A stretch of 32,000 bases of DNA from Rhodopseudomonas sp. NSM (GCA_052445935.1 JBQTCH010000003.1), one strand, 5' to 3'; positions 2,897 through 17,231 are shown, numbered from the stretch's first letter. Notes: a model not told the origin generated them from the letters alone. Numbers and translations are program-made.

Positions 2897-3631
2897 ATGT
2901 GGCGCGCGACCGAGAGCACCGCGGCGCATCAGCGCGCGCGCTTCATGCAGCCGAATGCGACGCTCTGGATGCGCCCGGACGCCGAGCGTTGGATCAGGCC
3001 CGACGTCGCGCGTTTTCTCGCGCCGGGTGCCCTGCCGGAAGATGTCTTCCCTGCACTGGATCGCAAGTACAACCCAAACCAACCGCGGGTGCCGAAGGGC
3101 AATCCGGACGGCGGCGAGTGGACGCTTGGCGGGCTTGGAGCGCGCTGGTCCATCGATCTGACGGGTGTCCCGTCCGATCTTTCAGGCCGACCCCCGGCTC
3201 GAGTTCGCCTCGCCCAAATAGGCAAGCTGATCACTGATATCTTTGGATTGCCGTATTACGAACCAGGCGGTCATCACGAGGCCGCCAGGGCCATGTACAC
3301 CAAGTGGGACCTTCGACCGGAAACGCGAAAGGTCTTTGACAATTCGACGACGGGTAAGTTACCGAGCGGTAAGTGGGTGTAGTCGTTGGATGGTGGTCTC
3401 CTCCGTGAGCACTATTGGGATAAGCGTCACGCGGCGTACAATAAGGCTGTCGAAGAACTAAGCGAACGCTTTCTTGAAGAGAAGAAAATTACGCCTAAGA
3501 TGATGACGCCACACCAAGCGGAAGAATTGTGCGCGCGGATCAGACTGTCGGAAGTGCCCGAAATCAAAGACTACAACCGCGCGATCCGAATGTTGAGGCA
3601 GGTGTATCGACTTAGATACGGTCGAGAGTAG
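2897..3631 (+). pseudogene. Polymorphic toxin A: conserved N-terminal module plus a GHH-signature HNH/EndoVII-like nuclease domain, interrupted by an in-frame TAG at 3380-3382
   Basis: The ATGTGG start is conserved with 4945 and 6508. The N-terminus reads MWRATESTAAHQRARFMQPNATLWMRPDAERWIRPDVARFLAPG...NQPRVPKGNPDGGEWT. The C-terminal part carries LPYYEPGGHHE. The tracked ORFs 2651..3382 and 3386..3631 are in the same frame and are separated only by the TAG. Together they align colinearly with the single ORF 6508..7116 plus its extension. Confidence 0.7.
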
Positions 3632-3642
3632 CGGAGGTCAAT

Positions 3643-4044
3643 TTGACGAACTCCAGGATCCGTTTCAGTCGCGAAGAATTCGTGCCGCTTTGGACCGCGC
3701 TGCGCGAGCGTATCATCGCTTGTTTCGAAAGCACGGGTAAGATCATCGATCCTTTCGGTCGAAGGGACTTCTGGGTGGTCGACGAGGACCTCGGCGTCGC
3801 GCTGGTGGAAGTCGAGATCATGACACTCGACCTGCTCGATCCGCCGGTGATCTACGCCCTGCGCGACCTGCTGCAAGAGTATCCGGGCTTCGCCATCACC
3901 GTGTCGGTGGTGCCGCCTGGTGGCGCCAAGTGGCCCGGAATGGGCATCTCGCTGTTTCAAGGCGAGATCATCGACGGGTTGAAGCGCTCCTTTCTGCCGC
4001 CGCCCTATCGAAATCTGCACTACCTGGGATCTCGTCCAGAATAG
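3643..4044 (+). CDS. Putative immunity protein for the GHH-type toxin (133 aa)
   Basis: GGAGG at 3633-3637 lies 5 nt before the TTG start, which is 11 nt after the toxin reading frame ends. It is clearly paralogous to 7283..7663 (DFWVVD, VEIM-LDLL-P-VIY-LRDLL, G-IIDGLKR, LP-PY) and more distantly to 4261..4665. Confidence 0.7.
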   Translation: MTNSRIRFSREEFVPLWTALRERIIACFESTGKIIDPFGRRDFWVVDEDLGVALVEVEIMTLDLLDPPVIYALRDLLQEYPGFAITVSVVPPGGAKWPGMGISLFQGEIIDGLKRSFLPPPYRNLHYLGSRPE

Positions 4045-4079: not shown

Positions 4080-4217
4080 TCTTCGACGGTGACCAGCGAA
4101 GATAACCAGCAGCTCGAGTGGCCGGTCCTGAATGCTCGGATCGACCGTATCCGAGATTTCAACCGCGCGATGCGGATGTTAAGGGTCATCGCGAAAATGT
4201 GGCTCGGGCGGGAATGA
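4080..4217 (+). pseudogene. Orphan stub: last ~30-45 codons of a third GHH-type toxin
   Basis: Frame +3 reads ...LNARIDRIRDFNRAMRMLRVIAKMWLGRE* with the stop at 4215-4217. This aligns with the C-terminal ends ...EIKDYNRAIRMLRQVYRLRYGRE* (toxin A) and ...EIRDYNRAIRMLRRVFRWRMGRE* (toxin C). No N-terminal part or start codon is present. Confidence 0.55.
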
Positions 4218-4260: not shown

Positions 4261-4665
4261 TTGCACCATGCCATCGTGCAGGTGATCGACAGTTATGTCT
4301 GCGAGCGCGCGAAAGCTGGTCGCGCGGTCTGGGTGTCTTCGAAACGTAGTCCGGGCTGTTATTCTCAGTTCATCACCTTGTACGACATCCAGTTGTTGCA
4401 GCCGGAGATGCTGGCTGCGTTGCAGACGTTGCTCGCCGGGTATCGCGACTGGTCGATTGAAATCCAGGTTGCTGCCCCGGACGGGGAGCGCACATGGGAT
4501 TGGCGCGACATGACGATCGATATTTCGCACGATCGTATCATCGACCGGCTTCAGCATGATCTGTTGCCACCGCATCTGCGGCAGGTGCGGTTCGGGACGA
4601 CGATCGATGAGTACAACGAGGAGCTCGCCGCGACGGTGCGGCGGCTGATGCGCAAGCCCGTCTAA
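4261..4665 (+). CDS. Orphan immunity-family protein (divergent paralog of 3643..4044 and 7283..7663)
   Basis: It shares ...LYDIQLLQPEMLAALQTLLAGY...IIDRLQHDLLPPHL with the VEIM-LDLLQP...IIDGLKR...LP-PY pattern of the other two. The start is uncertain: only a TTG/CTG is available after the upstream in-frame stop at 4180-4182. Confidence 0.55.
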   Translation: MHHAIVQVIDSYVCERAKAGRAVWVSSKRSPGCYSQFITLYDIQLLQPEMLAALQTLLAGYRDWSIEIQVAAPDGERTWDWRDMTIDISHDRIIDRLQHDLLPPHLRQVRFGTTIDEYNEELAATVRRLMRKPV

Positions 4666-4722
4666 GAAGCGCCTCCCGGCGCCCACCCGCCATAGTACAG
4701 ACAGATCGATACGAAGACACGG

Positions 4723-4880
4723 GTGCGACGGCTGTATCAGGTCGATCTCTGGGCGATCTCGATCGTCACGCTTCCGCTGCTCGCCGGCGCGCGCGTGCCA
4801 CCGTCAAACACACGCCGCTGCAATCGCCGCAGTTCGCGTCATCGCGATCGGCCAGCGCCGCGGATGGACCGGCGCGAGAT
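4723..4880 (+). pseudogene. Duplicated, degenerate 3' end of the prohead protease gene
   Basis: RRLYQVDLWAISIVTLPLLAGARV matches RRLYQVDLWEISIVTFPLLNGARV of the protease (nt ~2521-2592) at 21 of 24 residues. Nucleotide similarity continues with deletions through atcggccagcgccgcggatg. No protease body lies upstream. Confidence 0.7.
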
Positions 4881-4944
4881 CGTAAGGCAGCCACGCGTTC
4901 CATCGGGTCTTTCGCTCCACTCACCAATCAATCGAGGTCGACAC

Positions 4945-5808
4945 ATGTGGCGCTCCAGCGACAGCACCGCCGCGCATCAGCGCGCGCGCTTCATGCAACC
5001 AGATGCGGCACGCTGGATGCGGCCGGATGCCGAGCGATGGATCCGGCCCGATGTCGCGCGCTTTCTCGCGCCCGGCACCGACCCCGCGACGATCTTCCCG
5101 GCGCTCGACCGCAAGTACAGCCCGAACCAGCCGCGGGTACCGGCCGGAAACCCGGATGGCGGGCAGTGGACGAATGGCGAACTGGGAGGAGGGGCTTCGT
5201 CTGCCCGCCCGGGGCGCAATGATCCGCGCGTGATTTCCGACGCTGACCTCGAGCCCGTCAAGCCTGGGCAGCAACACGCTCAAGCGCGCGGGCGGCGCGG
5301 TGGCGGGACGGTCATCATCAACGGCCAGCGGTTCGAATTGACGCCGGGGCAAGGAGCACGGCTGACAGCGGTGCAAGCTCGCGCTGACGCTGCGATCGCT
5401 CGGGTGCGGGAAGCCGAACCCTCGTGGAAGCCGCCCCCCAATGACTACCAGACGCCGGAGGGGATGATCCGGGCCTATGAGGCCGACGCTGCGGTCGCCC
5501 AGGCGAGAATCAATCAATTGGCAGCGGGAGGAGCCCTGCCGGGCCCGTACGCCGGCGAATCAATTTCGGCAAGAGGGCCGAATCGGGATTTTCGAGCTTC
5601 GGAACGACGCGAGATCAATCGAATTGGCGCCGACACCGGCTGCCACACTTGTGGAAAGTTGGAACCCGGGACCAGCCTTGGTAACTTCGTCGCAGACCAC
5701 CAACTCCCGACCAATATCAATCCGATCAGCCGTGCACAGCGTCTCTATCCGCAATGTCTTTCGTGTAGTCGGAAGCAAGGACCGTTTGTCCGCGACCTGA
5801 AGAAGTAG
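4945..5808 (+). CDS. Polymorphic toxin B (287 aa), the only uninterrupted full-length copy: conserved N-terminal module plus linker plus zinc-ribbon HNH endonuclease domain
   Basis: GAGG lies 7 nt upstream of the conserved ATGTGG start. The N-terminal 78 aa differ at only 3 positions from toxin C. The C-terminus TGCHTCG...NFVADHQLP...YPQCLSCSRKQG has the HNH layout and is paralogous to 1..294. An immunity-type ORF follows. Confidence 0.75.
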   Translation: MWRSSDSTAAHQRARFMQPDAARWMRPDAERWIRPDVARFLAPGTDPATIFPALDRKYSPNQPRVPAGNPDGGQWTNGELGGGASSARPGRNDPRVISDADLEPVKPGQQHAQARGRRGGGTVIINGQRFELTPGQGARLTAVQARADAAIARVREAEPSWKPPPNDYQTPEGMIRAYEADAAVAQARINQLAAGGALPGPYAGESISARGPNRDFRASERREINRIGADTGCHTCGKLEPGTSLGNFVADHQLPTNINPISRAQRLYPQCLSCSRKQGPFVRDLKK

Positions 5809-5814
5809 TCCGCC

Positions 5815-6183
5815 ATGAATCAGACCACGAGATGCGCGCCGCCGAATTCGATCGTCTTCCTGGAAGACCCGGCGGGCGGCAAGTCGCCGAAGATCGACGA
5901 TCGCCCGGTGAGCATATGGGCGACACCATCGTGTATCATCGTCGGCACGCTCTGTTCGATGGATGGTGAGACCGAACTGATCGTGTCGGACCAACCGAAT
6001 GATGTGCCGCCGACACGGCCGACGTTCGACAGTTTTCTCCAAACGCCGAGCCGCGTCATCGAGGTGTCGACCTCCGAGCGCGAAATACTCCTGCGCTGTC
6101 CGGTGGAAACACACTTCACCCATGTTCGCGTCTGGACCAACCATCTCAGCGAACCGGACCGGGTTTTGGTCGTGCTCGGGTGA
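5815..6183 (+). CDS. Putative cognate immunity protein (122 aa) for toxin B
   Basis: The ATG lies 6 nt after the toxin stop. It is a paralog of 296..664 with the same length and shared motifs. Confidence 0.65.
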   Translation: MNQTTRCAPPNSIVFLEDPAGGKSPKIDDRPVSIWATPSCIIVGTLCSMDGETELIVSDQPNDVPPTRPTFDSFLQTPSRVIEVSTSEREILLRCPVETHFTHVRVWTNHLSEPDRVLVVLG

Positions 6184-6336
6184 TGGGAGTCGCCGCGGCC
6201 GGTGAGGGGGCGCGGCGAGGGTGCTCGCCCTGACCGCCCCCGCACACGAACGGGGTGGTGCTCTCCGCTTCTGCAACATCGACTAGAGCACTTCATCGAC
6301 TGATAGGATCAACGCGGCATTCTCGAGTGCGGAGTC

Positions 6337-6454
6337 GTCATCCTGAGGCGCGCGCGTAGCGCGCCTTGAAGGATGCGGCGAAGACGCTTGTGGCTCATCC
6401 TTCGAGGCCCGCAGCGCCGCGCATCGCGCGGCCCAGCGTGAACCTCAGGATGAC
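6337..6454. repeat. MITE/REP-like palindromic element, family 1 (gtcatcctgagg ... cctcaggatgac)
   Basis: The 12-bp terminal inverted repeats enclose nested palindromes (gaaggatg ... catccttc). Four copies are present in the window, at 6337, 13059, 14916 and 17132. Confidence 0.8.
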
Positions 6455-6507
6455 GACAGTGATTCCATCAAACCAGAGTTGATCCAACAACGTTCGAGGC
6501 CCGACCG

Positions 6508-7248
6508 ATGTGGAGCTCATCCGCGAGCACCGCCGCGCATCAGCGCGCGCGCTTCATGCAGCCCGATGCGGCGCGGTGGATGCGGCCAGACGCGGATCGC
6601 TGGATCCGGCCCGATGTCGCGCGCTTCCTTGCGCCGGGCACTGATCCGGCGACGATCTTCCCCGCGCTCGACCGCAAGTACAGCCCTAACCAGCCGCGGG
6701 TACCGGCCGGAAACCCGGATGGCGGGCAGTGGACAAATGGTGGCATCAGCGCTCGCTGGGCCGTCGACGATGTCCTCCTCAGCGATCCACAGGATGATCA
6801 GCTCCTCGATGGCGTTCAACTGACTCAGGTCGGGAGCTCAGTCACTGACGCCGATGGACTTCCCTACTATGCAACCGGCGGCCATCACGAAATGCCGAGG
6901 GGTGTCTACAGGAAATGGAACTTGCAGCCCGAGACCGAACGGGTATTCAATCGATCGACGACTGGCTCGCTTCCACAGGGAAGCCATATCGAAACGGATC
7001 AAGGTTTGCTCCGAGGACACTACTGGGATGGACCGGATGGTGCTCATGCCAAGTACAACAACGCCGTGTCTGACTTGAGTGAGCGCTTCATGAGAGAACA
7101 ACGGATCACGCCTTGAGTGATGACGCCCGATCAAGCCGAAGAGCTTCTGACGCGTATCAGGGAGTCGGACGTGCCGGAAATACGTGACTACAACCGGGCA
7201 ATTCGGATGCTGAGGAGGGTGTTCCGATGGCGCATGGGCAGAGAGTAG
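6508..7248 (+). pseudogene. Polymorphic toxin C: conserved N-terminal module plus GHH-signature nuclease domain, interrupted by an in-frame TGA at 7114-7116
   Basis: It uses the conserved ATGTGG start and carries LPYYATGGHHE. After ...RITP the in-frame TGA is followed, in the same frame, by VMTPDQAEELLTRIRESDVPEIRDYNRAIRMLRRVFRWRMGRE* (stop at 7246-7248). This matches the uninterrupted equivalent stretch of toxin A. Confidence 0.7.
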
Positions 7249-7282
7249 GCCGTTGGCTCGGTGATCGCCGGAGCATCGTCCG

Positions 7283-7663
7283 ATGACGCGGGAGAAATTC
7301 CTGCAGACCTGGAGCGAGTTGCGAGATCGCGCCATTGCCTATCTCGAAGGCTTTGGAAAGGAGATCGATCCGCTCGGCCACAAGGACTTCTGGGTCGTCG
7401 ACGATGATTATGACCTCTATCTTCTCCAGGTCGAGATCATGAGTCTCGATCTGCTGCAGCCGGCGGTGATCTACGGACTGCGCGATCTGCTCCGTGACTA
7501 TCCCGATTTCGCGATGACCGTTGCCGTTGTGGCGCCCCACGGCATCACGTGGCCGCGGATGGGTATCACGCTGTTCGAAGGCCAGATCATCGACGGGCTG
7601 AAGCGCGGATCGCTGCCGCTCCCCTATCAGGAGATTCAATATAAGGGCTCTCGGCCGGATTGA
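7283..7663 (+). CDS. Putative immunity protein for the GHH-type toxin (126 aa)
   Basis: GGAG lies 9 nt upstream of the ATG. It is a paralog of 3643..4044. Confidence 0.7.
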   Translation: MTREKFLQTWSELRDRAIAYLEGFGKEIDPLGHKDFWVVDDDYDLYLLQVEIMSLDLLQPAVIYGLRDLLRDYPDFAMTVAVVAPHGITWPRMGITLFEGQIIDGLKRGSLPLPYQEIQYKGSRPD

Positions 7664-7761
7664 TGAAGCGCTGCTTCCAGGAGGCCGACCCGCATCCCTG
7701 AACGCATTGCTGGCCGCCCGCTAGCCGCCGACCAACCGATCCCCTCGACTGAACGCTCCCC

Positions 7762-7790
7762 CGCCGTGGCCTCCCGCCGCGGCGTTTTCG
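7762..7790 (+). terminator. Intrinsic-terminator-like hairpin immediately upstream of the capsid gene
   Basis: A 9-bp stem cgccgtggc / gccgcggcg (one G-U pair) has the loop ctccc and is followed by TTTTCG at 7785-7790. It lies 37 nt before the capsid ATG. Confidence 0.4.
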
Positions 7791-7827
7791 TTCGTGCCTA
7801 TCCCGAAACGCCCACCAGGAGAACCCG

Positions 7828-9084
7828 ATGGACTACGACATCACCACCACCGCGCCGGAGACCAAGGCCGGCTTCGCTTCGTCCGAGCGCGATGCGCAGG
7901 ACGAGCTGCTGCGCGTCCACGAGGAATTCAAGGCGGCCAATGACGAGCGCCTGGCCGCGCGCGAGCGGCGGCGCGGCGACGTGTTGCTGGAAGAGAAGGT
8001 CGACCGGATTTCGGATGCGATCGACACCCGGCTGAAGCGGATCGAGGATTTCGCGCTGAAGCAGGCGCGGCCGCGGCTCGACGGCCGCCGCGCCGAGAGC
8101 TTCGCCGGCAGCCGCGAGCACAAGAGTGCGTTCGAGGCCTACGTCCGCAGCGGCGACGCCGCGCCGCTGCGCGCGATCGAGACCAAGGCGCTGTCGGTCG
8201 GCTCCAATCCGGACGGCGGTTACCTCGTGCCGGTCGAGCTCGAACACGCGATCGCCTCGCGGCTTTCGTCGATCTCGCCGATCCGGAGCCTCGCCTCGGT
8301 GCGCGAGATTTCCGGCAGCGTCTACAAGAAGCCGTTCATGACCACGGGGCCCGCCACCGGCTGGGTCGGCGAGACCGACGTGCGGACGCAGACGGCCTCG
8401 CCGGTGCTCGACGCGCTGTCGTTCCCGGCGATGGAGCTGTACGCGATGCCGGCCGCGACCGCGACGCTGCTCGACGACTCGGCGGTGAATATCGACGAGT
8501 GGATCGCCGCCGAGGTCGAACTCACCTTCGCGGTGCAGGAGGGCGCGGCGTTCGTCAACGGCGACGGCGTCAACAAGCCGAAGGGCTTTCTCGCCGCGCC
8601 CACGGTGGCGAACGCGTCGTGGAGCTGGGGCAGTCTCGGTACTATCGCCACCGGCGCCGCCGGCGCGTTTCCCGAGGACGATCCGTCCGACGTGCTGGTC
8701 GATCTGATCTACGCGCTGAAGGCCGGCTATCGCCAGAACGGCGCCTTCGTGATGAACCGCAAGACCCAGGCCACGATCCGCAAGTTCAAGGATGCGTCCG
8801 GCAGCTATCTGTGGCAGCCGCCGGCGCAGGCGGGCGGCCGCGCCTCGCTGATGACGTTCCCGCTGATCGAGGCCGAGGACATGCCCGACGTCGCGGCGAA
8901 TTCGCTCAGCGTCGCGTTCGGCGACTTCCGCCGCGGCTATCTGGTGGTCGACCGGCTCGGCGTCCGCGTGCTGCGCGACCCGTATTCCGCCAAGCCCTAC
9001 GTGCTGTTCTACACCACGAAGCGGGTCGGCGGCGGCGTGCAGGACTTCGACGCGATCAAGCTGCTGAAGTTCGCGGCGAGCTGA
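7828..9084 (+). CDS. HK97-family major capsid protein, RcGTA g5 equivalent (418 aa)
   Basis: AGGAG lies upstream of the ATG. The N-terminal coiled region (delta-domain-like) is followed by GGYLVP, AFVNGDG-NKPKGFL and YRQNGAFVMN, motifs typical of HK97 capsids. Its position after the protease is also as expected. Confidence 0.93.
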   Translation: MDYDITTTAPETKAGFASSERDAQDELLRVHEEFKAANDERLAARERRRGDVLLEEKVDRISDAIDTRLKRIEDFALKQARPRLDGRRAESFAGSREHKSAFEAYVRSGDAAPLRAIETKALSVGSNPDGGYLVPVELEHAIASRLSSISPIRSLASVREISGSVYKKPFMTTGPATGWVGETDVRTQTASPVLDALSFPAMELYAMPAATATLLDDSAVNIDEWIAAEVELTFAVQEGAAFVNGDGVNKPKGFLAAPTVANASWSWGSLGTIATGAAGAFPEDDPSDVLVDLIYALKAGYRQNGAFVMNRKTQATIRKFKDASGSYLWQPPAQAGGRASLMTFPLIEAEDMPDVAANSLSVAFGDFRRGYLVVDRLGVRVLRDPYSAKPYVLFYTTKRVGGGVQDFDAIKLLKFAAS

Positions 9085-9123
9085 ACGAGCATCCGAACGC
9101 ACGATCCAGACTCACGATCCAAG

Positions 9124-9150
9124 CGGCGCGCCCGATCGGCGCGCCGTTTT
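9124..9150 (+). terminator. Rho-independent terminator after the capsid gene
   Basis: A perfect 9-bp GC stem cggcgcgcc / ggcgcgccg (9124-9132 paired with 9138-9146) has the loop cgatc and is followed by TTTT at 9147-9150. Confidence 0.6.
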
Positions 9151-9194
9151 CGATTCCAGCCCCTGTTTTGGATCCTCGGTGAGGACAACGTCGC

Positions 9195-10022
9195 ATGCCG
9201 CACCAGGACGATGCCTGGCTGCGCCATCAGCAGACGCGATGGTTGCGGCCCGACGGCGACCGCTGGGTGCGCCCGGACGCCGCGCGGTTTCTGAAGCCAG
9301 GTAGCAACCTGGTCGAGGTCTTCCCGGCGCTGGCGTTCAAATACAGCCCAAACCAGCCGCGCGTGCCGGCCGGCCATCCGGACGGCGGGCAGTGGACGAG
9401 CGGGGGAGGGGGTGAGGTCTCGGACTTTGCGGACCCCATCGGCAGTACGCAGCCGAGCTATGCGCTGCCCATGGGCGACGTTGCGATCGGTGACGTTGCC
9501 GTTGGAAGCGACGATCTGTTTTCCATCGTGTCGAAACAGCCCGAGCGCACTGGTGTCAGGCTTGCGGGCGATCTACCGGAAGGCAGCGATCCGGCTCCGG
9601 AGGTGCCGACGGAGCCTCCGCCGGAAATTCCAGCCAAGAAACCCAGAACCAGTGCAGAGCGGACGGCCATTCTTCGAGCTGTCGAAAATTGGGCAGTGCG
9701 ACATGCTGGTCTACCAGCTAAGATGTTGTTCGGTGCGATCGAGAATATTGAATGGCTCAAGGATCGGACAGATCTCATCCGAGCAGCAACCGATCCGCCG
9801 AAGAGCCTCCTGGAGTTGCAGAATGAAGTCGGCAGGAAGCGCGCGGGCTACGACGTTCATCACATTGTTGAAAGAACCTGGGCGGAGTATTTTGGCTTTT
9901 CGCGATCGCAGGTCAATGATCGGTCGAATTTGGTGAGTATTCCGCGACTTAAGCATTGGCAGATCACCGGATGGTACATGACGCGGACCGATGAGTTCGG
10001 TGGTTTGTCGCCGCGGGATTAA
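9195..10022 (+). CDS. Polymorphic toxin D (275 aa): N-terminal module (subtype 2) plus an HNH nuclease domain of the xHH type; probably truncated by a TAA
   Basis: GAGGA lies 9 nt upstream of the ATG. The N-terminus reads MPHQDDAWLRHQQTRWLRPDGDRWVRPDAARFLKPG...NQPRVPAGHPDGGQWT. The C-terminal part carries GYDVHHIVE...NDRSNLVSIPRLKHW. In the same frame after the TAA at 10020-10022, 25 more codons (..VGLYALRRFGVLEP*) match the C-terminus of toxin E and end in a GTGA overlap with the next gene. Confidence 0.7.
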   Translation: MPHQDDAWLRHQQTRWLRPDGDRWVRPDAARFLKPGSNLVEVFPALAFKYSPNQPRVPAGHPDGGQWTSGGGGEVSDFADPIGSTQPSYALPMGDVAIGDVAVGSDDLFSIVSKQPERTGVRLAGDLPEGSDPAPEVPTEPPPEIPAKKPRTSAERTAILRAVENWAVRHAGLPAKMLFGAIENIEWLKDRTDLIRAATDPPKSLLELQNEVGRKRAGYDVHHIVERTWAEYFGFSRSQVNDRSNLVSIPRLKHWQITGWYMTRTDEFGGLSPRD

Positions 10023-10096: not shown

Positions 10097-10468
10097 GTGA
10101 AAGCGATCGATCTTGAAGCCATGTCGACGGACGAACTGGTGCAGCGCTTCTCCGCTATAGGAGTCGCACAAGATCAGGCGCTGCTCGGATTCAGGCTCAA
10201 GGAGTTCAATCGGCTTTTCGAGAAAATGGCCGATGTGTCCGAGGCGCTGAAACGACGTGACGGCGATCAGCGGCGCGCGCTGCTGGTGCTGTTCAGCTAT
10301 CCGAATATGCAAGTGCGATTGAAGGCTGCCAAACATACGCTCGCAGTCGCGCCGCTCGAAGCGCGCCAGCAGCTCGAAGCAATTGTGGCTAGCAGGTGGT
10401 TCCCGCAAGCGGGTGACGCCGGCATGTGCTTGTCGTTGCTGGACGACGGGACTTTCAAACCGAAATGA
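10097..10468 (+). CDS. Putative immunity protein, DUF2019-like (123 aa)
   Basis: The GTG start overlaps the ancestral toxin stop (GTGA at 10097-10100). ELVQRF...ALL...FNRLF...LK.R.GDQRRALL.L..YPN.QVRLKAA.HTLAVAP.EAR..LE.I...W.PQAGDAGM.L..LD.G.FKP matches my memory of DUF2019 proteins. It is a close paralog of 11563..11934. Confidence 0.7.
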   Translation: MKAIDLEAMSTDELVQRFSAIGVAQDQALLGFRLKEFNRLFEKMADVSEALKRRDGDQRRALLVLFSYPNMQVRLKAAKHTLAVAPLEARQQLEAIVASRWFPQAGDAGMCLSLLDDGTFKPK

Positions 10469-10517
10469 CACAGAGAGACGATGTCGAGGCCCACGCGGCG
10501 CCCGCCCGCGGACCGAC

Positions 10518-10595
10518 GCGATGATCATGCTGCTGAAATTTTCGGCGAGCTGATCGGCCCGGTCCGCCCGGAACGGCCTGATCTCGACATCCAAA
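10518..10595 (+). pseudogene. Degenerate duplicate of the capsid gene 3' end
   Basis: gacgcgatgatcatgctgctgaaattttcggcgagctga aligns with the capsid terminus gacgcgatcaagctgctgaagttcgcggcgagctga (DAIKLLKFAAS*). The similarity runs on into the copied terminator. Confidence 0.55.
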
Positions 10596-10627
10596 CGGCG
10601 CGCCCGATCGGCGCGCCGTGTTCGTTT
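10596..10627 (+). terminator. Second copy of the capsid terminator hairpin, with a decayed T-tract
   Basis: It has the same cggcgcgcc-cgatc-ggcgcgccg hairpin as 9124-9146, here followed by tgttcgttt. Confidence 0.4.
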
Positions 10628-10664
10628 GCGGCCTTCGGTTCATCCGCAACGAGGATGCTGCCGT

Positions 10665-11566
10665 ATGCCGCATCACGACCAGGCCTGGCTGCGCCATCAG
10701 TAGATGCGATGGCTGCGGCCCGATGGCGACCGCTGGGTGCGCCCGGACGCCGCGCGCTTTCTGAAGCCAAGTAGCAACCCGTCGAGGCCTTTCCGGCGCC
10801 GGCGTTCAAATTCAGCCCGAACCAGCCGCGCGTGCCGGCCGGCCATTCGGACGGCGGGCAGTGGACGAGTGGCGGGGGTGGGGCCGCCGAGTCTGCAGAT
10901 CCCAGTGGGAGCGGGCCCGCGAGCGCGGCGCAGCCGATGGGCGACGTTGCGATCGGCGACGCCGCGGCCCAAAGCAATGATCTGTTTTCAATCGTGTCGA
11001 AAGAGCCAGACCGCTCCGGCGTGCGGTTGGCGGGCGATCTGCCGGAGGGCAGCGATCCGGCGCCTGGAGTGCCCGGCAACGAGCCGCCGGAAATTCCGCA
11101 AAAGAAACCTGCCTATAGTGCAGATCGAACGAGATATTTTCGGGCTGCTGCCGACTGGCTTGCACGAAGCTCGGGTCTTCCCGGACTGCTTTACGAAGGC
11201 TCTATGAGATCCGTGGAGTGGCTGCGAGATTGGCATGATGTTATTTCGGCTGCGCGAGACGGTCCCAAGCCGTTGAGGGAGTTCATGGACGGTGTTGGTC
11301 AAGCTCGCCCGGGCTACGATGTCCATCACATCAACGAGGTAAAGGCGGCAAAGCTGGATGGTTATAGCCTGTTGGTGATCAACGATCCTTCGAATCTTGT
11401 CAGCATTCCGCGCCTGAAGAACTATCAGATCACGGTATGGTATTCAGCACCAAGCGTCGAATTTGATGGTTTGTCTCCGGGAGAATTCCTGCGTGGCAAG
11501 AGCTGGGAGACGCGCCGCGAAGTCGGGTTGAGGGCGCTGCGAAAATTTGGAGTGTTGGAGCCATGA
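10665..11566 (+). pseudogene. Polymorphic toxin E: same architecture as toxin D, inactivated by an in-frame TAG (10701-10703) and a 1-nt deletion near 10779
   Basis: The sequence atg ccg cat cac gac cag gcc tgg ctg cgc cat cag TAG corresponds to cag CAG in toxin D. aacctggtcgagg in D is aacccgtcgagg here, which shifts the frame from +3 to +2. The downstream ORF 10832..11566 carries PGYDVHHINE...NDPSNLVSIPRLKNY and an intact C-terminus ...FGVLEP*. Confidence 0.7.
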
Positions 11567-11934
11567 GCAAACAGGATCTTCGCCAAATGGCGACGCCGGA
11601 GCTCGTGGCTCTATTTGCGAAAGTCGTGGTCGGACAGGACGAGGCCTTGCTCGGACATCAGCGAGCGAAATTCAAACGCTTGTTCGACATGATGCGAGAT
11701 ATTGCGAACGAATTGAAGGGACGCGAAAGTGATCAGCGGGTCGCGCTGTTGAGCCTCTTCGAATACCCGAATATGCAGGTGCGGCTTCAGGCGGCCAAGC
11801 TGACGCTCGCGGTCGCTCCCCTGGAGGCGCGCAAACAGCTCGAAGCTATCGCGTCCACAAAGTGGTATCCGCAGGCCGGCGACGCCGGTATGTGCCTATC
11901 CTTTCTGGACGATGGAACATTCAAGCCGAAATGA
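11563..11934 (+). CDS. Putative immunity protein, DUF2019-like (123 aa)
   Basis: There is an ATGA start/stop overlap with toxin E. It is a close paralog of 10097..10468. Confidence 0.7.
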   Translation: MSKQDLRQMATPELVALFAKVVVGQDEALLGHQRAKFKRLFDMMRDIANELKGRESDQRVALLSLFEYPNMQVRLQAAKLTLAVAPLEARKQLEAIASTKWYPQAGDAGMCLSFLDDGTFKPK

Positions 11935-12650: not shown

Positions 12651-12965
12651 TCAGCAGTAGCCGTACCAGCCGCAGGCGTAGGGCAGGCGGCTGAAGATCG
12701 CATCCGACGGCGTGCCGTAATAGTTGAAGTAGTGATAGGAATTCGGCTTGCCGTAATAGCCCTGGACGATGGGGCGGACGTCGATCTCCGGTGCATAGAC
12801 CGGCGATGCGCTGATGACGTCGCGCGGCGGCGGCACCATTGCGACGATGCGGCCGCGCGGCTCGGGCTCGGCGAAGATGCGGCCGATCCTGCTGTGCGCG
12901 GGCAGATCCGCGGCCACCGCCGGTGCGGCGGTGGCAAGAGCGATCAGCAGGACGGCAAGGCGCAT
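12651..12965 (-). CDS. Small secreted hypothetical protein (104 aa), Tyr/Gly-rich C-terminus
   Basis: The internal ATG (A at 12965) gives MRLAVLLIALATAAPAVAADLP, which looks like a signal peptide. The protein ends ...YYGKPNSYHYFNYYGTPSDAIFSRLPYACGWYGYC. Confidence 0.55.
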   Translation of the reverse strand: MRLAVLLIALATAAPAVAADLPAHSRIGRIFAEPEPRGRIVAMVPPPRDVISASPVYAPEIDVRPIVQGYYGKPNSYHYFNYYGTPSDAIFSRLPYACGWYGYC

Positions 12966-13058
12966 CGACGGGCTCCGGGTGAGCCGGCAGGGTGGGCCAA
13001 CATGGTTAACGAAATCTGAAGGGCGACGGTGGGCGTGGCGGGTGTCTCCGCAAGCGCC

Positions 13059-13167
13059 GTCATCCTGAGGTGCGCGCTGTTGCGCGCCTCGAAGGATGCG
13101 GAGGCGGGCACGGCGTTCGCGGCGCATCCTTCGAGGCCGCCGCTGCGCGGCGGCGCCTCAGGATGAC
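13059..13167. repeat. MITE/REP-like palindromic element, family 1
   Basis: It has the gtcatcctgagg ... cctcaggatgac termini and internal cgaaggatgcgg ... gcatccttcgagg. Confidence 0.8.
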
Positions 13168-13196
13168 GGCGGCAGATGGTGCGGCTTCGCGCCGGC

Positions 13197-13967
13197 CTAC
13201 TTCGCCAGCGTCGCGCCCCAGCTCCGCGCCGTGGTCTCGATCCAGTCGCGATACAGCGTCAAGGGCGTGATGCCGGTGAGGCCGCCGCAGCCGCTCGCGT
13301 TGGCGGCGCCGGTCGACCACGACACCACGCCGATCACCACCGCGCGGCCGTTCTGCTGTTGCAGCGCCGGGCCGCCGGAATCGCCGGTGCAGGCGCCCTG
13401 GCCCTCGCGGGCGTTGTTGGTCGCCGGATCGACCAGGCGGATCTGCAGCCGGCCGGGGCGGCCGGTGGCGATCAGTTCGGCGGCGCGCACCACGCCGCCG
13501 CTCTTGCCATCGCCGCGCTGCGCCACGCCGATGCCGGCGACGGTGAAGCTCTGCCCCGCGGAGAGCGGATCGCCCGGCGCGGCGATCGCGACCGGGCTCC
13601 TGCCGGGCAGGGGAGCCGCGAGCTGCAGCAGCGCGATGTCGGCGGTGGCGCGGTTGGCCTTGATCGCGCGCAGATCGAATTGCGGATGCGCAGCGAGGCG
13701 GCGGATGTCGCGGAGCTGCGGCTGGCCCTGCGCGTCGCGCTGCACGATCTTGTAGTCCGCGCCGGGCGCGACGCAATGCGCGGCGCTCAGCACCAGATCG
13801 GGCGCGATCAGCGCGCCGGAGCAGAAATTGCCGCGCGAGCCGACGATGGTGACGATGGCGCGGCCGAGGCCGTCGCTGCGCTCGCGTGCGCCGCCGACCA
13901 TCGCGACGCAAGGCGTGGCCGCGAGCGCGGCTGTGAACAGCAGTGCGAGTTTCAACGAGCGGATCAT
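13197..13967 (-). CDS. Secreted trypsin-like (S1 family) serine protease (256 aa)
   Basis: The N-terminus is signal-like (MIRSLKLALLFTAALAA). LSAAHC (catalytic His), DIALL (Asp) and GDSGGP (Ser) are in the canonical order. The start is taken at the ATG rather than the upstream TTG. Confidence 0.85.
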   Translation of the reverse strand: MIRSLKLALLFTAALAATPCVAMVGGARERSDGLGRAIVTIVGSRGNFCSGALIAPDLVLSAAHCVAPGADYKIVQRDAQGQPQLRDIRRLAAHPQFDLRAIKANRATADIALLQLAAPLPGRSPVAIAAPGDPLSAGQSFTVAGIGVAQRGDGKSGGVVRAAELIATGRPGRLQIRLVDPATNNAREGQGACTGDSGGPALQQQNGRAVVIGVVSWSTGAANASGCGGLTGITPLTLYRDWIETTARSWGATLAK

Positions 13968-14029
13968 GGCGAGCTTCAAGAGCCTCGCCGCCGCCGCGCT
14001 GTCAACCGGATGATCTCGGAGGGAAGAAC

Positions 14030-14599
14030 ATGTCGGCGATTTTGCTGGCGGGGCCGGCTGTGGAGCCGTGGACGCTCGCCGAACTGAAGACCTTTCTGCG
14101 CGTCGACCACGACGACGACGATCCGGTGATCGCGTCGCTGCTCGCCGCGGCGCGTAGCCAGATCGAGGCGATGACGCGGCGCGCGCTGCTGGCGCAGAGC
14201 TGGCGGATCACGCGCGACGCCTGGCCGCGCGACGGCCGCATTGCGCTGCGGATCGGGCCGCTGCAGGCGCTGAGCGCGGCGCGTGTGTTCGATGCCGACG
14301 GCACTGCGCATGAGGTCGACCTCGCGCGGTTCGTGATCGACGCCGCAAGCGGGACGATCGCCGCGCCGTTTGGGTCGCTGCCGCAGCCGGGGCGCAGCGT
14401 CGCAGGCATCGCGCTCGACGTCGAGCTCGGTTACGGCACGCAAGCCTCGGACGTGCCCGAGCTGCTGCGCCACGCGGTGCGCACGTTGGTCGCGCACTGG
14501 TACGACAACCGCGGCATGGCGGCGATCGGCGGCAGCGTCGCGATACTGCCGGGCAGCGTGGCGGCGATGATCGCGAGCTTCCGGGTGGCGGCGCTATGA
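14030..14599 (+). CDS. Phage gp6-like head-tail connector protein, RcGTA g6 equivalent (189 aa)
   Basis: GGAGGGAAG lies upstream of the ATG at 14030. LAELKTFLRVDHDDDDPVIASLLAAARSQIEAMTRRAL is the typical N-terminal signature of this family. Its position relative to the following genes also fits. Confidence 0.8.
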   Translation: MSAILLAGPAVEPWTLAELKTFLRVDHDDDDPVIASLLAAARSQIEAMTRRALLAQSWRITRDAWPRDGRIALRIGPLQALSAARVFDADGTAHEVDLARFVIDAASGTIAAPFGSLPQPGRSVAGIALDVELGYGTQASDVPELLRHAVRTLVAHWYDNRGMAAIGGSVAILPGSVAAMIASFRVAAL

Positions 14600-14913: not shown

Positions 14914-14915
14914 GC

Positions 14916-15014
14916 GTCATCCTGAGGAGCCCGGCTTAGCCGGGCGTCTCGAGGATGGCGGCAGGCACCCGTGGGCATCCTTCGAGGCTCGCTGCGCTCG
15001 CACCTCAGGATGAC
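14916..15014. repeat. MITE/REP-like palindromic element, family 1
   Basis: It has the gtcatcctgagg ... cctcaggatgac termini. It starts 3 nt after the adaptor stop and ends 28 nt before the next start. Confidence 0.8.
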
Positions 15015-17117: not shown

Positions 17118-17131
17118 AAGAGAGCACGACC

Positions 17132-17231
17132 GTCATCCTGAGGAGCGCGCTCTTGCGCGCCTCGAAGGATGGCAACGCACACCGCGGCCCTGCTTCGAGG
17201 CTCGCCCTGCGGGCGAGCACCTCAGCATGAC
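17132..17231. repeat. MITE/REP-like palindromic element, family 1
   Basis: The termini are gtcatcctgagg ... cctcagcatgac, with one mismatch in the right terminus. It lies 14 nt from the family 2 element. Confidence 0.75.

Follow-up and report, generated by a model that had tools for sequence, protein, structure and literature searches.

The protease slot and its remnant

The 32,000-nucleotide (nt) stretch of Rhodopseudomonas sp. NSM that was analysed (the window, whose numbering is used throughout) carries, as judged from its genes, an RcGTA-like gene transfer agent (GTA) head-tail cluster, with the RcGTA-like head-tail genes on the + strand within 1–25000. Putative toxin/immunity cassettes occupy three slots of this cluster, located 3' of the portal, of the protease and of the capsid genes. 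In the protease slot, the putative toxin gene toxB lies behind a decayed duplicate of the prohead protease 3' end, and this remnant marks the joint between two different toxin/immunity arrays. The elements that delimit the slot and the remnant are listed below; labels of the form Lnnn, here and elsewhere, designate loci in related genomes.

2157–2798, + strand: resident prohead protease gene, S78/HK97 type (PF04586, E 2e-39; TIGR01543, E 2.9e-30); its start is uncertain, the open reading frame (ORF) opening at 1977
4261–4665, + strand: immA', second immA-like gene (31% amino acid identity to immA), the last element in common with the sister genomes
4666–4701, no strand: junction interval, with no match to the sister genomes or to the protease gene, and somewhere inside which an illegitimate joint would lie
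4702–4880, + strand: decayed protease 3' remnant, with blocks at 4702–4796 and 4829–4874
4945–5808, + strand: toxB, intact putative toxin gene, with a B-type C-terminal domain behind the shared N-terminal domain
7762–7827, + strand: conserved capsid-upstream boundary, the fixed right edge of the slot, where homology with all relatives restarts
7828–9084, + strand: major capsid protein gene (PF05065, E 2.4e-86)

A repeat search of the window aligns 4702–4796 with positions 2499–2593 of the resident protease gene (87% identity over 95 nt) and 4829–4874 with positions 2663–2708 (89% identity over 46 nt). An earlier reading of the window, made from the sequence only, had claimed that the protease 3' end is duplicated in front of toxB. 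This duplicate is real: a gapped blastn alignment of 2300–2960 with 4560–5010 gives 154 identities out of 203 (E 3e-35), a significant similarity, and a 20-mer of the second block has exactly two occurrences in the window for 0.05 expected. The same reading had counted 21 matching residues out of 24 with the C-terminal region of the protease, correctly, as the remnant peptide RRLYQVDLWAISIVTLPLLAGARV and the resident peptide RRLYQVDLWEISIVTFPLLNGARV show; homology nevertheless begins at 4702, seven codons before the start that it had placed at 4723. The remnant is, furthermore, collinear with the 3' end of the intact L081 protease, both conserved blocks included. A chance similarity or an assembly artefact, for which the GC-rich composition of the sequence would be the only argument, has a practically negligible probability. 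Chance was rejected on the alignment statistics and on the collinearity of the blocks; the two copies have diverged (87%) and hence are not a collapsed or duplicated assembly repeat, and the same pattern is present in independent isolate assemblies (for example, L001 and L039).

The decay of the copy can be read directly. A deletion of 1 nt located immediately after the residues GARV shifts the frame of the remnant, and the offset between the two copies falls from 2203 to 2166 between the two blocks, that is, a net deletion of about 37 nt. Because of this frameshift and of this net deletion, the remnant is regarded as a decayed pseudogene fragment; 4702–4880 would be a non-functional, decaying piece of the last conserved part of the protease. 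The comparison of the remnant with its nearest relatives is not discriminating because this block is highly conserved in all the genomes compared.

It is very improbable that the fragment still has a function, either as an N-terminal extension of toxB starting at the GTG codon at 4723 or as a regulatory leader that toxB needs. The ORF 4723–5808 is open and in frame with toxB, and a 20-nt block is identical in the resident gene, in the remnant and in L002. However, the remnant leaves the reading frame of the protease immediately past GARV, the toxB homologues start at the conserved methionine of MWRSS (4945), and the remnants found at other loci stop at their own stop codon, differ in length or precede no toxin gene; as for the 20-nt block, it is confined to the protease tails of the Rhodopseudomonas clade. 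The N-terminal extension was therefore rejected, the ORF 4723–5808 being taken as a chance in-frame run-on.

Comparison of the protease slot with sister genomes

The proximal array of the window (protease-toxA-immA-fragment-immA') is also carried by L001, L002 and L004, with 79–88% nucleotide identity (88% over 1030 nt in L002). Homology with these sister genomes ends at most 8 nt from the stop codon of immA' (4665). In each of the five close relatives (L001–L005), it restarts at 7760–7762, 66 nt upstream of the capsid start. Therefore, the block remnant-toxB-immB-toxC-immC (4667–7761) is specific to the window; in its place, the sister genomes hold about 0.75–0.98 kb with an immB-like gene. 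In L081, L086, L087 and L005, an intact protease gene is directly followed by a B-type toxin gene, an immunity gene and the capsid gene, and the remnant-toxB-immB segment of the window is collinear with L081.

No breakpoint is found in the resident protease gene when compared with L002, identity being 93, 93, 92 and 86% along the gene. The toxA array and the capsid gene display a similar divergence from L002 (88% and 87.6% identity, respectively), which fits vertical inheritance of the proximal array. The sequence-only reading had supposed that new cassettes push older ones distally; this polarity is not supported as it stands in the window, where the proximal toxA array is the one common to L001, L002 and L004, at the divergence of the core genes.

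Putative toxin and immunity genes of the window

Besides toxB and immA', the following genes and gene fragments belong to the cassettes of the protease and capsid slots.

2897–3631, + strand: toxA, A-type C-terminal domain, pseudogene, with an in-frame stop codon at 3380–3382 (GKWV and a stop, versus GKWVE in L001)
3643–4044, + strand: immA, putative immunity gene for the A-type toxin, always 3' of A-type C-terminal domains in related loci
4134–4217, + strand: orphan 3' fragment of an A-type toxin gene, last ~27 codons, ARIDRIRDFNRAMRMLRVIAKMWLGRE and a stop codon (three-frame translation)
5815–6183, + strand: immB, putative immunity gene for toxB, found 3' of B-type toxin genes in L005, L012, L081 and L087
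6508–7248, + strand: toxC, A-type C-terminal domain, pseudogene, with an in-frame stop codon at 7114–7116
7283–7663, + strand: immC, immA-type immunity gene (60% amino acid identity)
9195–10022, + strand: toxD, intact putative toxin gene, D-type C-terminal domain
10097–10468, + strand: immD (DUF2019; PF09450, E 1e-43; 2i9c_A, E 1.2e-50)
10665–11566, + strand: toxE, D-type toxin pseudogene (stop codon and frameshift)
11563–11934, + strand: immE (DUF2019; PF09450, E 1.3e-44)

The five toxin genes located between head genes encode a common N-terminal domain of about 75 amino acids (pattern W-x-RPD...RW-x-RPD...KYxPNQPRVPAGxPxGGQWT), followed by unrelated C-terminal domains. The N-terminal domain of toxB is 81% identical to that of toxA and 96% identical to that of toxC. 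Each C-terminal type is paired with one type of small downstream gene in dozens of loci, and runs of several immunity-type genes are found in L027 and L037. The GC content is about 0.67–0.71 in the head genes and the toxin N-termini versus 0.53–0.60 in the C-terminal domains and the immunity genes, a contrast that would set the variable parts apart as a mobile pool of their own. Of the five toxin genes, three (toxA, toxC and toxE) are pseudogenes, while every immunity ORF is intact; the stop codons of toxA and toxC fall where relatives have E or K. The immA product shares 95% amino acid identity with its L002 counterpart, and the orphan fragment, which is 84% identical in nucleotides to 3568–3598, is also present before immA' in L002. 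In addition, the window opens inside a sixth toxin gene (7–294, a B-type C-terminus), followed by an immB-like gene and then by orf214.

The cassettes are regarded as putative polymorphic toxin/immunity cassettes. This reading rests on their architecture because the toxins have no family or fold match. Searches in Pfam, NCBIfam, PHROGs and PADLOC returned no family for any toxin, for immA or for immB, and gave only a weak Imm1 match for orf214. A profile search of PDB sequences with the toxins gave no match, and the AlphaFold model of toxB, of moderate quality, has no fold match. The N-terminal domain has no Pfam match even at E <= 10 and none in NCBIfam or PHROGs. Homologues number about 900–1100, all of them 'hypothetical' and without a Pfam domain. 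The immD and immE products fall in the family whose solved structure, PDB 2I9C (RPA1889 of R. palustris), is a structural-genomics deposit without a functional assignment.

The toxB product matches a hypothetical protein of Rhodopseudomonas sp. NSM at 100% identity and has 897 homologues. Its residues 205–287 match the C-terminal region of an Rhs protein, and residues 205–285 share 48% identity with that of a Burkholderia RHS-core protein, whose gene has an Imm21 immunity gene on its 3' side; the C-terminal region of toxB also matches a Priestia DNRLRE protein. No match to toxB was found in a phage genome collection. The C-terminal domains of toxA and toxD have no matches in a plasmid collection, and no sharing with other delivery systems of the kind displayed by toxB was found for them. 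In Shinella (L085, 5911–6993), a toxB homologue (40% identity, residues 54–282) with a small downstream ORF lies beside a PBP1-type gene, outside any recognisable GTA head cluster, and therefore the toxin family is not strictly bound to GTAs.

The motif KYxPNQPRVPAGxPxGGQW(T) closes the N-terminal domains encoded at 2897–3130, 4945–5178, 6508–6741 and 9195–9410. The same motif occurs 4–9 times as an inter-domain spacer in giant proteins of 1100–2700 amino acids (P0130, P0132 and P0215). It may be a processing or docking motif.

Capsid and portal remnants in the window

The same phenomenon was claimed for the capsid 3' end, at 10518–10595, and considered probable for the portal 3' end, at 1336–1485. 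Both copies exist, with slightly different limits.

10496–10633, + strand: capsid 3' remnant and copy of the capsid-toxD spacer (E 4e-41 for the whole alignment)
1357–1485, + strand: portal 3' fragment, last ~43 codons, between orf214 and orf73; its upstream neighbour is orf214, not the portal gene

In the capsid slot, 9027–9087 is 70% identical to 10496–10556, and 9117–9161 is 89% identical to 10589–10633. The alignment of the capsid region extends into the toxin N-terminus (178/240 identities). The portal fragment (1357–1487) shows 92.6% nucleotide identity to the portal 3' end of L002 and 84.7% identity to the end of the annotated PF04860 portal gene of L087. The portal fragment, which is followed by orf73 and no toxin gene, departs from the repeating unit of the sequence-only reading, made of a head-gene 3' end, a toxin gene and an immunity gene.

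The toxD and toxE units are homologous over their full length, with a constant offset of 1466–1470 nt. Such a period is what an in-situ tandem duplication would leave, that is, unequal crossing-over of a unit made of the protease 3' end, a toxin gene and an immunity gene, followed by a later swap of the C-terminal and immunity parts through the shared N-terminal region. The 96% identity of the toxB and toxC N-termini also suggests gene conversion inside the array, and the tail of the protease remnant is of the window/L002 type. However, the toxA and toxB units share only the protease 3' end and the N-terminal domain. Their C-terminal domains and immunity genes are unrelated, which would require at least two further events. 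Moreover, the immD and immE types are both found in L002 and hence are old lineages rather than recent mutual copies. Whole-unit unequal crossing-over, the second mechanism put forward in the sequence-only reading, fits toxD/toxE but not toxA and toxB.

Variation of the slots in related genomes

A capsid-centred scan provided 80 loci from Rhodopseudomonas, Afipia, Nitrobacter, Tardiphaga, Bradyrhizobium, Pseudolabrys and other relatives, to which eight loci from other look-ups were added. The gene order portal - orf73 - protease - capsid - connector is invariant across related loci. The intervals, compared in about 85 related loci, are variable: -8 to 6591 nt between portal and orf73, -4 to 6394 nt between protease and capsid (5029 nt in the window) and 790 to 8525 nt between capsid and connector. 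The cassette types vary by genome and some genomes have none. The three strains that carry P0003 are identical to one another and hence carry no information on turnover at a fine scale. The comparison across genomes thus gives fixed anchors between which the number of cassettes, from none to many, and their identity vary. Because the slots vary in related genomes, the arrangement is not fixed and invariant, and the view that cassettes accrete at these sites survives. As comparable scars in a dozen related genomes show, the putative toxin/immunity cassettes have repeatedly been added and swapped, the head genes around them staying fixed.

Other sequences also lie in the capsid slot. L002 (11259–12716) and L004 (11258–12695) carry there a 1.46 kb cargo made of two minus-strand genes without a toxin N-terminal domain, and therefore the slots take other cargo too; one of these genes has a weak PADLOC match (E 1e-4) to the C-terminal region of PsyrT. 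In L063 (11317–12567), an IS4-type DDE transposase gene (PF01609, DUF4372), located 40 nt past the capsid stop codon, separates the capsid gene from the toxin gene.

Remnants in related genomes

Fourteen extra partial copies of capsid or protease genes were found in 12 other loci. All of them are fragments of the 3' part of the gene (most reach the gene end), lie on the + strand and are located downstream of the intact gene; no 5' fragment of a head gene was found among the related loci. Third-codon-position conservation at the capsid 3' end, which could have betrayed homogenisation by recombination, is 0.77 versus 0.65 overall, and is not above that of other conserved blocks. Where a preceding immunity gene can be identified, the junction falls about 5–100 nt past its stop codon. 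The left ends of the remnants vary from capsid residue 268 to 398. Together with the lack of any recombinase family among the cassette ORFs, this variation led to the rejection of a site-specific integrating element.

In L001, L002, L004, L029 and L039, the DNA located 3' of the remnant is unrelated to that located 3' of the intact gene, and therefore duplication of a whole unit fails to explain these five loci. In the window and in L021, L051, L063, L064 and L020, the two downstream sequences share the toxin N-terminal region only. The origin of the remnants themselves is not uniform. Those of L001, L029, L051, L063 and L021 are 95–99% identical to their own resident gene, as tandem duplication would predict. 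Others are of a foreign type: remnant 2 of L064 has 97% identity to L063/L065/L068 and 88% to its own gene, that of L068 has 93.7% identity to L054 and 90.7% to its own gene, and for remnant 2 of L039 the own gene ranks 37th. These three remnants, nearer to foreign genes, fit arrival with imported DNA. With the foreign-type remnants and the five loci in which nothing past the remnant resembles the DNA past the intact gene, in-situ tandem duplication is quite unlikely as the source of the protease remnant of the window.

A proposed history of the protease slot

The sequence-only reading had invoked two homologous crossovers, one of them in the 3' end of a head gene. Two such crossovers would swap a cassette and would neither add one nor leave a remnant; therefore, one junction must be illegitimate. 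The history that is favoured here, with moderate confidence, is that the distal block was imported, one of its ends being joined illegitimately and the other by a homologous crossover. A DNA segment would have come from a related Rhodopseudomonas in which toxB lay directly 3' of the protease gene. Its left end would by chance have fallen inside the donor protease gene, and it would have spanned toxB-immB, and probably toxC-immC too, into the conserved capsid-upstream region. At the right end, homologous recombination would have taken place at or past position 7762; at the left end, the segment would have been joined illegitimately a few nucleotides past the stop codon of immA'. A second array would thereby have been placed behind the resident protease-toxA-immA-immA', replacing the segment of about 0.9 kb kept by the sister species. 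The protease fragment would later have gained its frameshift and deletions because it had no start codon and no function. Throughout the bacterial family, the three slots of RcGTA-like clusters (portal, protease and capsid) may have undergone the same process repeatedly, and it would yield arrays in which the toxin genes are often decayed and the immunity genes intact.

This topology would be that of a one-sided, homology-facilitated illegitimate recombination. In this type of recombination, one homologous anchor and one illegitimate joint add foreign DNA and replace a recipient segment. De Vries and Wackernagel reportedly described it in 2002 in naturally transformable bacteria. The topology that we infer for 4667–7761 is similar, but the basic model does not account for a bias so strictly in favour of 3' fragments.

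Several points weigh against the import of the distal block. The same final structure would be obtained if the toxA array had been inserted beside the protease gene and the native 3' end displaced. The tail of the remnant is nearest to the window/L002-type protease (79–80% versus 66–73% for the others), so the donor would have been a close relative, a native origin being also possible. The distal toxD unit that bears a remnant in L002/L004 aligns collinearly with the proximal one found in the window and in L001, which can be read as a proximal insertion of new cargo and equally as a distal import. The symmetric one-sided model predicts 5' fragments of downstream genes, of which the related loci hold none. 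The spacer that follows immA' is unconserved among relatives, hence no junction microhomology is readable, and among the relatives compared no genome is near enough to catch the event. The 3'-only bias may have one of two reasons: either a 5' fragment, being expressed, could disturb assembly, or an imported toxin gene needs its own upstream leader, so that the import has to start in a head-gene 3' end.

The reverse order of arrival, which is unlikely, would start from an ancestor with the order protease-toxB-immB-toxC-immC-capsid. A fragment or a circle carrying a protease 3' end and toxA-immA-fragment-immA' would have entered the protease gene, possibly by Campbell-type or ends-in recombination, supplying a new 3' end and leaving the native one stranded before toxB. 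As single-crossover integration predicts, direct repeats of the protease 3' end flank the supposed insert. The portal fragment lies at a native-like spot, 25 nt before orf73 (6–57 nt in several cassette-free relatives), with cassettes upstream, a spacing that can equally be read as the import of a distal part. In L002/L004, the 1.46 kb cargo separates the capsid gene from a decayed toxD unit that bears a remnant, has an internal deletion and aligns collinearly with the proximal toxD unit of the window. Among the distal genes, toxE and toxC are pseudogenes; however, the proximal toxA is itself a pseudogene and the distal toxB is intact. This order of arrival also has to face the presence of the toxA array in three sister species at core-gene divergence, next to a protease gene without breakpoint. 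Furthermore, several remnants found elsewhere are of foreign rather than native type, and neither a recombinase gene nor a circular intermediate is evident in the ORF family scans. The accretion scar put forward in the sequence-only reading is supported in substance, its mechanism and its polarity being supported only in part.

Other genes of the cluster

Downstream of the capsid slot, a gp6-like connector gene is found.

13943–14599, + strand: gp6-like connector gene

It is followed by genes for head completion, tail completion, GTA gp10, DUF2460, a BR0599-type hub and NlpC/P60 proteins, and by the gene of a 1285-amino acid protein with GTA_TIM (PF13547, E 2.4e-138), Phage-tail_3 and Rcc01698_C domains. 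The matches to the other GTA-specific families are Rcc01698_C (PF23666, E 6e-30), DUF2460 (PF09343, E 1e-84) and GTA gp10 (PF11836, E 1.5e-29). General family scans identified no integrase or replication gene among the ORFs scanned within the 32-kb window.

On the opposite strand, the interval from the capsid slot to the connector gene holds a trypsin-like serine protease gene (12651–13979, minus), adjoined by a small ORF. This protease gene is kept in Rhodopseudomonas relatives (L081, 16297–17905; L087, 18684–19451). Short intergenic repeats with 76–88% identity are scattered across the cluster (6336–6421, 13058–13152, 14915–14997 and 17131–17171) and may correspond to a REP-like element or a terminator. 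In L087 (13959–18025), the cluster is rearranged: the large terminase gene is found downstream of the capsid slot, after a HipA_2 and DUF3037 pair.

Relationships with known systems

Poole et al. (2011, cited in PMC5576092) reportedly described orphan cdiA-CT/cdiI and rhs-CT/rhsI modules downstream of contact-dependent inhibition (CDI) and Rhs loci. Like these orphans, the cassettes of the window are modules of a C-terminal domain and an immunity gene, arrayed behind a conserved gene and variable among strains. The modules retain a piece of conserved upstream sequence, the toxin parts decay while the immunity genes persist, and the C-terminal domain of toxB is common to toxins with other delivery systems. 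The 4134–4217 fragment with immA' is even a classical orphan. Unlike in Rhs and CDI orphans, the conserved sequence retained in the window does not come from the toxin gene; it is a spacer together with the 3' end of another gene, namely that of the protease, the capsid or the portal. In addition, toxB is complete, with its own ATG and a full N-terminal domain, and would need no fusion for its expression, whereas the lack of an own start or delivery domain that characterizes the orphans is found in the 4134–4217 fragment only. Finally, the locus is a GTA head-gene cluster and not a secretion-system locus.

The MuF polymorphic toxins of temperate phages (Zhang et al. 2012, PMC3482391; Jamet et al. 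2017, PMC5576092) also display polymorphic C-terminal domains and small downstream immunity ORFs, and are encoded in a phage-type head morphogenesis module, near the portal, protease and capsid genes. Packaging in the head is their proposed delivery route. Unlike MuF toxins, no toxin of the window has a MuF (Phage_Mu_F) domain, in Pfam searches at E <= 10. The cluster is RcGTA-like and not a prophage, and it carries several cassettes in three slots. The term 'gene transfer' is absent from PMC3482391 and 'orphan' is absent from PMC5576092.

The gene order and families of the window match those of the RcGTA-type clusters of Alphaproteobacteria (PMC5721377, PMC7296036), from the portal through the GTA_TIM/Rcc01698_C protein. 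In the literature, no paper was found that links RcGTA-like clusters to toxin/immunity cassettes located between head genes, and nothing relevant was found on DUF2019 or on the QPRVPAG motif. Toxin/immunity cassettes in GTA clusters thus appear to be undescribed before.

Significance for gene transfer agents

The scar alone is a small pseudogene fragment, yet it is direct sequence evidence of the growth and turnover of cassettes inside GTA head clusters, throughout a whole bacterial family. With regard to why bacteria maintain GTAs, a GTA cluster with strain-specific putative toxins and long immunity arrays, encoded on the strand of the head genes, hints at a connection with competition or with kin discrimination. 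More tentatively, and with a good deal of doubt, the RcGTA-like particles of Rhodopseudomonas, Nitrobacter, Afipia, Tardiphaga and their relatives might be putative protein-toxin delivery devices besides DNA carriers. If this were true, the shared N-terminal domain, which ends in KYxPNQPRVPAGxPxGGQW, would act as a signal for targeting to the head or for processing, the variable nuclease-like C-terminal domains would be injected into recipient cells, and the immunity arrays would define kin. The head-gene 3' ends would be the homology that travels with each cassette, and through DNA pieces of GTA size, about 4 kb, the GTA could reshuffle its own toxin repertoire from strain to strain.

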